A stretch of DNA of 64,000 nt, taken from the NCBI RefSeq assembly GCF_003018115.1, contig NZ_CP027457.1; one strand, 5' to 3'. A program made the translations under genes and the position numbers. Below the pieces are notes generated by a model that was not told the DNA's origin, searched no databases, and saw only the letters and a program-made list of their open reading frames with translations. The stretch comes from Escherichia coli (lineage in GTDB: Bacteria; Pseudomonadota; Gammaproteobacteria; Enterobacterales; Enterobacteriaceae). Shown piece by piece: positions 20,331 through 21,170 of this stretch; the first letter of the stretch is position 1; each line of letters opens with the position of its first letter.

Positions 20331-21170
20331 CTACGCAGAGCGAGACGCTGTCGCCCCTGCACGTGGTGGCAGGGCAAATGCCACCAGCGCCGGGATGAGA
20401 TAAATAAACCAGACGGCGACTTCGCTGACGCTCGGTGCTTCCTGATAGCCAAAAATCCCTTCCATCAGCGTGCCAAACAGCGAGTGAGTTGAGAGGACCT
20501 CGCTCATATCGAAGGCGATTTCCTGAAAGTGGTTCCACAATCCGGCTTCATGAAATGCGCGAATGGCACCAGCTGCCAGCCCTGCGGCGACGAAGAGAAT
20601 AAACAGGCTGGTCCATTTAAAAAATGCACCAAGATTGAGGCGAATACCGCCCCAGTAGAGCAGGAAGCCGAGCACCACGGCAGTAGCAAGACCGAGCATT
20701 GCACCCAGCGGCGGCCAGATCCCGACATCTTGTTGAAATGCCGCCAGCAGGAAAAAGACCGACTCCAGGCCTTCCCTTGCAACGGCAAAAAAGACCATCA
20801 TCACCAGCGCCCAGCCATGATGATTTCCACGCTGCAATGCGCTATCGACTGCCTGTTCCAGTTGCACTTTGACGTTGCGCGACACTTTGCGCATCCAGAA
20901 AACCATCCAGGTAAGGATCACCACGGCGATCACCGCCACGATACCTTCAAACAGTTCCTGCTCTTTTTGCGGAAATTCGCCGGTGGTTTCGTTAATGAAG
21001 ATACCCAAGCCCAGGCACAACGCAGCGGCAAGCAACACGCCAATCCACATCACACCAATCCATCGGCCTCGCTGGGTACGCTTAAGATAGCTGGCAATCA
21101 AACTGACAATCAGCGCGGCTTCAAGCCCTTCGCGCAACATAATGAGAAACGGAACAAACATGCCACCCAC
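20331..21170 (-). CDS. efeU: EfeU, ferrous iron permease (intact; start may be ATG at 21158)
   Basis: Full-length FTR1-type permease with two REGLE motifs, no frameshift. Confidence 0.85.
   Translation of the reverse strand: MGGMFVPFLIMLREGLEAALIVSLIASYLKRTQRGRWIGVMWIGVLLAAALCLGLGIFINETTGEFPQKEQELFEGIVAVIAVVILTWMVFWMRKVSRNVKVQLEQAVDSALQRGNHHGWALVMMVFFAVAREGLESVFFLLAAFQQDVGIWPPLGAMLGLATAVVLGFLLYWGGIRLNLGAFFKWTSLFILFVAAGLAAGAIRAFHEAGLWNHFQEIAFDMSEVLSTHSLFGTLMEGIFGYQEAPSVSEVAVWFIYLIPALVAFALPPRAGATASRSA

Follow-up and report, generated by a model that had tools for sequence, protein, structure and literature searches.

If efeU, the iron permease gene of the efeU-efeO-efeB operon, is broken by a frameshift in Escherichia coli K-12, what does it mean to find the same gene whole: is the open frame peculiar to the DNA that carries it, or is K-12 the exception? 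The question is raised by a 64,000-nucleotide (nt) stretch of E. coli DNA (contig NZ_CP027457.1), here called the window, in which an initial annotation, made from the letters alone, had read efeU as one full-length permease open reading frame (ORF), set it against the frameshifted K-12 allele and concluded that the DNA comes from a non-K-12 background with a presumably functional EfeUOB system. The comparisons described below leave little doubt that the window carries the wild-type, ancestral allele of an inner-membrane iron permease gene of the FTR1/OFeT family, which opens the efeU-efeO-efeB operon. The features discussed are collected in Table 1.

The case for an intact gene is straightforward. 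Neither translation nor alignment with the K-12 gene (b4490) reveals an internal stop or a frameshift in the window's efeU; the Pfam FTR1 model matches residues 1-275 of the protein (E 1.9e-89, 300.2 bits against a cut-off of 25.3), the NCBIfam EfeU equivalog model scores 331.8 bits (cut-off 255) and TIGR00145 scores 351.8 bits (cut-off 303.8). The full-length reading, on which the ORF listing, the family match and the alignment agree, is far beyond chance, and both REXXE motifs are in place. A crude Kyte-Doolittle profile (19-residue window, threshold 1.6) gives six clear hydrophobic segments, with the expected fourth helix, which bears the second REXXE motif, falling under the threshold; a length of 276 residues and seven transmembrane regions are given for EfeU in PMC9174327.

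What, then, happened in K-12? In the MG1655 reference (1077500-1086000), efeU is annotated as an 830-nt pseudogene. Pairwise alignment of this gene with the window's efeU yields 12 substitutions and one indel at 98.6% nucleotide identity; at the indel, K-12 reads ATTGTGTG and the window reads ATTGGTGTG, so that one G of a GG doublet in codon 36 is gone in K-12. The K-12 frame consequently ends in ...RWIV with a stop at codon 37, and restoring the G returns a 276-residue protein that differs from the window's EfeU at one residue. The K-12 half of the initial claim is thereby seen directly, and the frameshift is also recorded in the literature (PMC2808357); the alignment holds only this single indel, and no premature stop that the first reading might have missed interrupts the window's frame.

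Which of the two states came first? Among 5426 complete E. coli genomes, efeU is present at a coverage of at least 80% in 5417; the exact 66-mer with the K-12 deletion occurs in 368, and the exact intact 67-mer at the same site in 3618. The deletion carriers, among the 60 listed, are apparently laboratory derivatives of K-12, such as MG1655, C600, DH5alpha, DH1, J53 and NCM3722. Because of this census, the K-12 state is to be regarded as a derived peculiarity of a laboratory lineage: an intact efeU is the norm in E. coli and the ancestral state, and the frameshift is a lineage-specific loss. That efeU is intact outside K-12 was already known (Grosse et al., 2006; Cao et al., 2007), and the latter study (Mol Microbiol 65:857), by its title as cited in PMC9174327 and PMC4746246, describes EfeUOB as cryptic in K-12 and functional in O157:H7. 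The contrast drawn in the initial annotation is therefore true, but it does not distinguish the window from E. coli at large. The practical value of the intact frame is that of a marker: it says that the window is not K-12.

If the permease gene is whole, does the system work? EfeU, whose transmembrane helices carry two REXXE motifs, moves iron over the inner membrane, acting together with the periplasmic protein EfeO, which combines cupredoxin and M75 domains, and the haem-containing DyP peroxidase EfeB, which is exported by the twin-arginine translocation (Tat) pathway; transcription of efeUOB is repressed by Fe-Fur and CpxAR and induced at low pH and low iron. In the window, the EfeO and EfeB proteins exceed their NCBIfam equivalog cut-offs, and EfeB has its RRRLLK Tat motif and the catalytic residues D235, H329 and R347. 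We infer that the operon would be expressed and would transport iron in the source strain; judged from its sequence, EfeUOB is likely to be working there.

An intact frame does not by itself establish function, however, since in this operon an invariant residue of EfeB has undergone a rare substitution, and several observations weigh against the simplest account. Approximately 1400 genomes match neither k-mer, being at least one base off both, and the k-mer counts do not classify them; a simple consensus scan found no sigma-70 promoter directly upstream of efeU. The EfeB substitution itself, P261L, affects a proline shared by 118/118 enterobacterial orthologues, by the EfeB of K-12 and O157 and by two more distant EfeB/deferrochelatase entries of known structure, 6jbn and 9az2; Leu261 is limited to 5 of 4855 genomes, which belong to an O169:H41 clade resembling enterotoxigenic E. 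coli (ETEC).

The EfeB substitution underlies the most probable alternative, in which efeU itself is whole and it is EfeUOB as a system that is impaired or altered in this lineage, through EfeB P261L and possibly E11G, and would be cryptic by a mutation other than that of K-12. EfeO and EfeB are reported to be required for transport (PMC4746246), and P261L is for this reason a ground for caution. Yet the catalytic residues and the twin-arginine motif of EfeB are retained, a single Pro-to-Leu change is often tolerated, and the differences across the operon from K-12 and O157 are mostly synonymous (12-15 nt and one amino acid in efeU, 12-17 nt and 1-2 amino acids in efeO, 15-26 nt and 4-5 amino acids in efeB), a pattern consistent with ongoing purifying selection. 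An impaired system is unlikely. A narrower version, in which the small O169:H41-like ETEC clade has had its Efe system altered or silenced independently of the K-12 frameshift by P261L, together with E11G and EfeU A221E, is somewhat less probable still; if true, it would provide a second natural case of a cryptic EfeUOB.

The substitutions in EfeU and EfeO give less cause for concern. EfeU A221E is probably neutral because position 221 is variable, being occupied by N, G, Q, A, H or S among 112 enterobacterial orthologues; the residue was judged from these column statistics, as a sequence search detected no FTR1-family chain in the PDB on which it could be placed. The exact EfeU allele of the window is found in six genomes. 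EfeO carries Q234K relative to K-12 and O157; relatives with characterised structures vary at this position. A working EfeUOB thus remains the likely reading, and the presumption of function made at the outset stands on the intact frames, the motifs, a promoter with a Fur box and an EfeU that is one variable residue away from that of O157:H7; it is EfeB P261L that qualifies it.

Where does EfeU begin? The maximal ORF on the minus strand (20331..21170) encodes 279 residues from a GTG at 21168-21170, and the initial annotation had given exactly these bounds for the gene; the gene is accepted to begin with the ATG at 21161, 9 nt 3' of the GTG. Initiation at the GTG would draw on its being in frame and the first start codon past the preceding stop, but it is very improbable: RefSeq places the start of the identical gene of strain F9792 at the ATG, the MG1655 gene coordinates and the literature (PMC9174327) agree on 276 residues, the match to the family models begins at residue 1 of the 276-residue form, and the GTG lies within the purine-rich AAGGGTGGGTGG, which would be the ribosome-binding site of the ATG.

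That an error of sequencing or assembly at the GG doublet has produced the intact frame is extremely unlikely: single-base indels are the commonest assembly error, but nothing specific supports one here, a two-base run is not prone to error, the intact 67-mer recurs exactly in 3618 independent complete genomes, and the efeU of five genomes agrees with the window's at every base over 840 nt.

How would the wild-type allele be controlled? The region upstream of efeU contains a site resembling a Fur box, which is identical in K-12 and O157 and is the only one in the window to score at least 15 against the Fur consensus; having four mismatches, it was found by direct scoring, and a search for the consensus with up to three mismatches gave no match. 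The -35 and -10 elements listed in Table 1 represent a weak manual reading. A CpxR-box-like site follows the Fur box, ahead of the start codon; sites of this kind with one mismatch number 10 in the window against 3.9 expected by chance, too many for this one to be more than a candidate. An 88-residue ORF that runs over the promoter (21173-21439, minus strand) has no family match, is unannotated in RefSeq genomes and was set aside as spurious.

Table 1. Features of the efeUOB locus and the adjoining spacer (window coordinates).
Feature	Position	Strand	Remarks
efeB	17869..19140	-	423 amino acids, Tat-signal DyP peroxidase, intact; 5 nt downstream of efeO
efeB codon 261	18358..18360	-	CTT (Leu; Pro in orthologues); rare, lineage-specific P261L
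efeB codon 11	19108..19110	-	E11G; Glu kept in 117/118 orthologues; adjoins the Tat motif, in the n-region of the Tat signal
efeO	19146..20273	-	375 amino acids, cupredoxin and M75 domains, intact; 57 nt downstream of efeU
efeU coding sequence	20331..21161	-	276 amino acids and TAG stop, 831 nt; ATG start at 21159-21161
efeU codon 221	20499..20501	-	GAG (Glu); Ala in O157:H7 and repaired K-12; sole amino-acid difference from those alleles
Second REXXE motif	20763..20777	-	REGLE, residues 129-133
GG doublet	21055..21056	-	efeU nt 106-107, codon 36 (GGT, Gly36); K-12 has one G only
First REXXE motif	21120..21134	-	REGLE, residues 10-14
Promoter-proximal 128 bp	21162..21289	-	97.7% identical to K-12
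CpxR-box-like site	21199..21213	+	GCAAAGAAAAGTAAA; one mismatch to GTAAA-N5-GTAAA; between Fur box and start codon
Fur-box-like site	21221..21239	-	CGTAATGATAATCGCTATC; 15/19 to consensus; overlaps the putative -10
Putative promoter	-35, 21250-21255; -10, 21228-21233	-	TTGTAT, 16-nt spacer, GATAAT; weak manual reading
447-residue ORF	22343-23686	+	divergent from efeU, within the long putP-efeU spacer

From what background does the window derive? The non-K-12 origin proposed at the outset is well supported: efeU has 12 substitutions relative to K-12, and its nearest alleles, at 100% identity, come from ETEC strains of serotype O169:H41; the putP-efeU spacer measures 2673 bp against 542 bp in K-12, an integrase-bearing island is present at serX, and pgaABCD is missing. 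The island (1-15085) is joined to the last 15 nt of the serX gene for tRNA-Ser (15086-15100); a scan of the 64 kb with ARAGORN detects no intact tRNA. The segment 1-15100 is 100% identical to strain 2014C-4135, whose flank differs and in which cdiA/cdiB lie further along. On the other side, pgaABCD, dgcT (ycdT) and ycdU, which follow phoH in K-12, O157:H7 and 2014C-4135, are absent, and the interval from phoH to the serX remnant is occupied by a DUF2726 gene (15192-15878, minus strand), an arrangement shared with the ETEC strain F9792. Identity to F9792 is 99.7% over the segment 15086-33383, where efeU, efeO and efeB do not differ, and 98.8-99.2% over the remainder of the shared region; since no single complete genome in the collection matches the entire window, the window is a mosaic relative to that collection. 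The island encodes the integrase (13709-14926, minus strand), a DUF3987 protein, an inovirus Gp2-like gene, a protein with an SdiA-regulated domain and L-lactate utilisation genes. Rfam matches at gathering level elsewhere in the window comprise Ysr251 (16465-16658, plus strand), which is antisense to phoH at its 3' end, the cspA thermoregulator (52850-53272, minus strand), naRNA4 (42090-42168, plus strand) and ES036 (36168-36210, plus strand).

And what fills the long spacer, a version found in 645 of the 5426 genomes? It shares with the K-12 spacer its last 128 bp and a weakly similar patch of 78 bp, and it holds an ORF of 447 residues whose close homologues are confined to E. coli. This protein has no match above threshold in Pfam, NCBIfam or PADLOC, and the gathering score of Pfam PipB2_N is not reached. 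An exhaustive HMMER search resolves it into two modules: (i) an N-terminal domain (residues ~28-163), which has few relatives and for which a sequence-profile search of PDB sequences was empty; and (ii) three C-terminal repeats of ~60 residues (residues ~240-430) with the consensus W..M....R...GG....A......GLT..G..L. In other proteins the same repeats are strung together in long tandem arrays, and several of these proteins have a SET domain at the end (Salmonella enterica subsp. indica, S. bongori, Paraburkholderia, Pantoea). The protein is a candidate secreted (type III) effector, as yet uncharacterised, and its repeat array is possibly nucleic-acid-binding; this effector-like gene is a more interesting lead in the window than efeU.

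The DNA around this ORF has features of its own. Between the efeU promoter and the ORF lie ~900 bp of non-coding DNA (21440-22340; 31-35% GC) with no Rfam match and no ORF of at least 60 residues, which may constitute a silenced regulatory region of the H-NS type. A 21-nt stem-loop (23749-23800) between the convergent ends of putP and the 447-residue ORF is likely a bidirectional terminator. An AT-rich inverted repeat of 18 nt (21449-21466 / 23801-23818) is found near both ends of the extra spacer DNA; its interpretation as transposon ends was not adopted, the repeat being short, AT-rich and probably due to chance.

How does the locus compare with known systems? K-12 b4490 occupies the same place, between putP and efeO, and its promoter-proximal 128 bp are identical to those of the window bar three substitutions; unlike the window's efeU, it is one G short in codon 36, so that its frame closes at codon 37, and, also unlike the window, its spacer diverges beyond the conserved 128 bp and is devoid of the 447-residue ORF. 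E. coli Nissle 1917 reportedly carries an intact, transport-competent allele of efeU, the one said to have been described by Grosse et al. in 2006 (Mol Microbiol 62:120). The closest counterpart reported to be functional is that of O157:H7, represented here by strain PV15-279, which is not the strain used by Cao et al. (2007): its EfeU (YcdN) is intact, has 276 residues and is identical to the window's at 275 of them, as alignment, the check suggested at the outset, confirms; the gene order efeU-efeO-efeB, the spacing and the Fur-box region are the same, and the putP-efeU spacer is of the same 2.67-kb type, with the 447-residue ORF, at 96.7% identity. The proteins of the window differ from those of O157:H7 by EfeU A221E, EfeO Q234K and five residues of EfeB, P261L and E11G among them. 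In the wider family of FTR1/OFeT permeases, which includes yeast Ftr1p and bacterial relatives, EfeU shares the full-length Pfam FTR1 domain, the two REXXE motifs and a multi-helix membrane topology; unlike yeast Ftr1p, which is paired with a Fet3-type multicopper oxidase, bacterial EfeU has periplasmic EfeO and the DyP peroxidase EfeB as its partners (PMC9174327).
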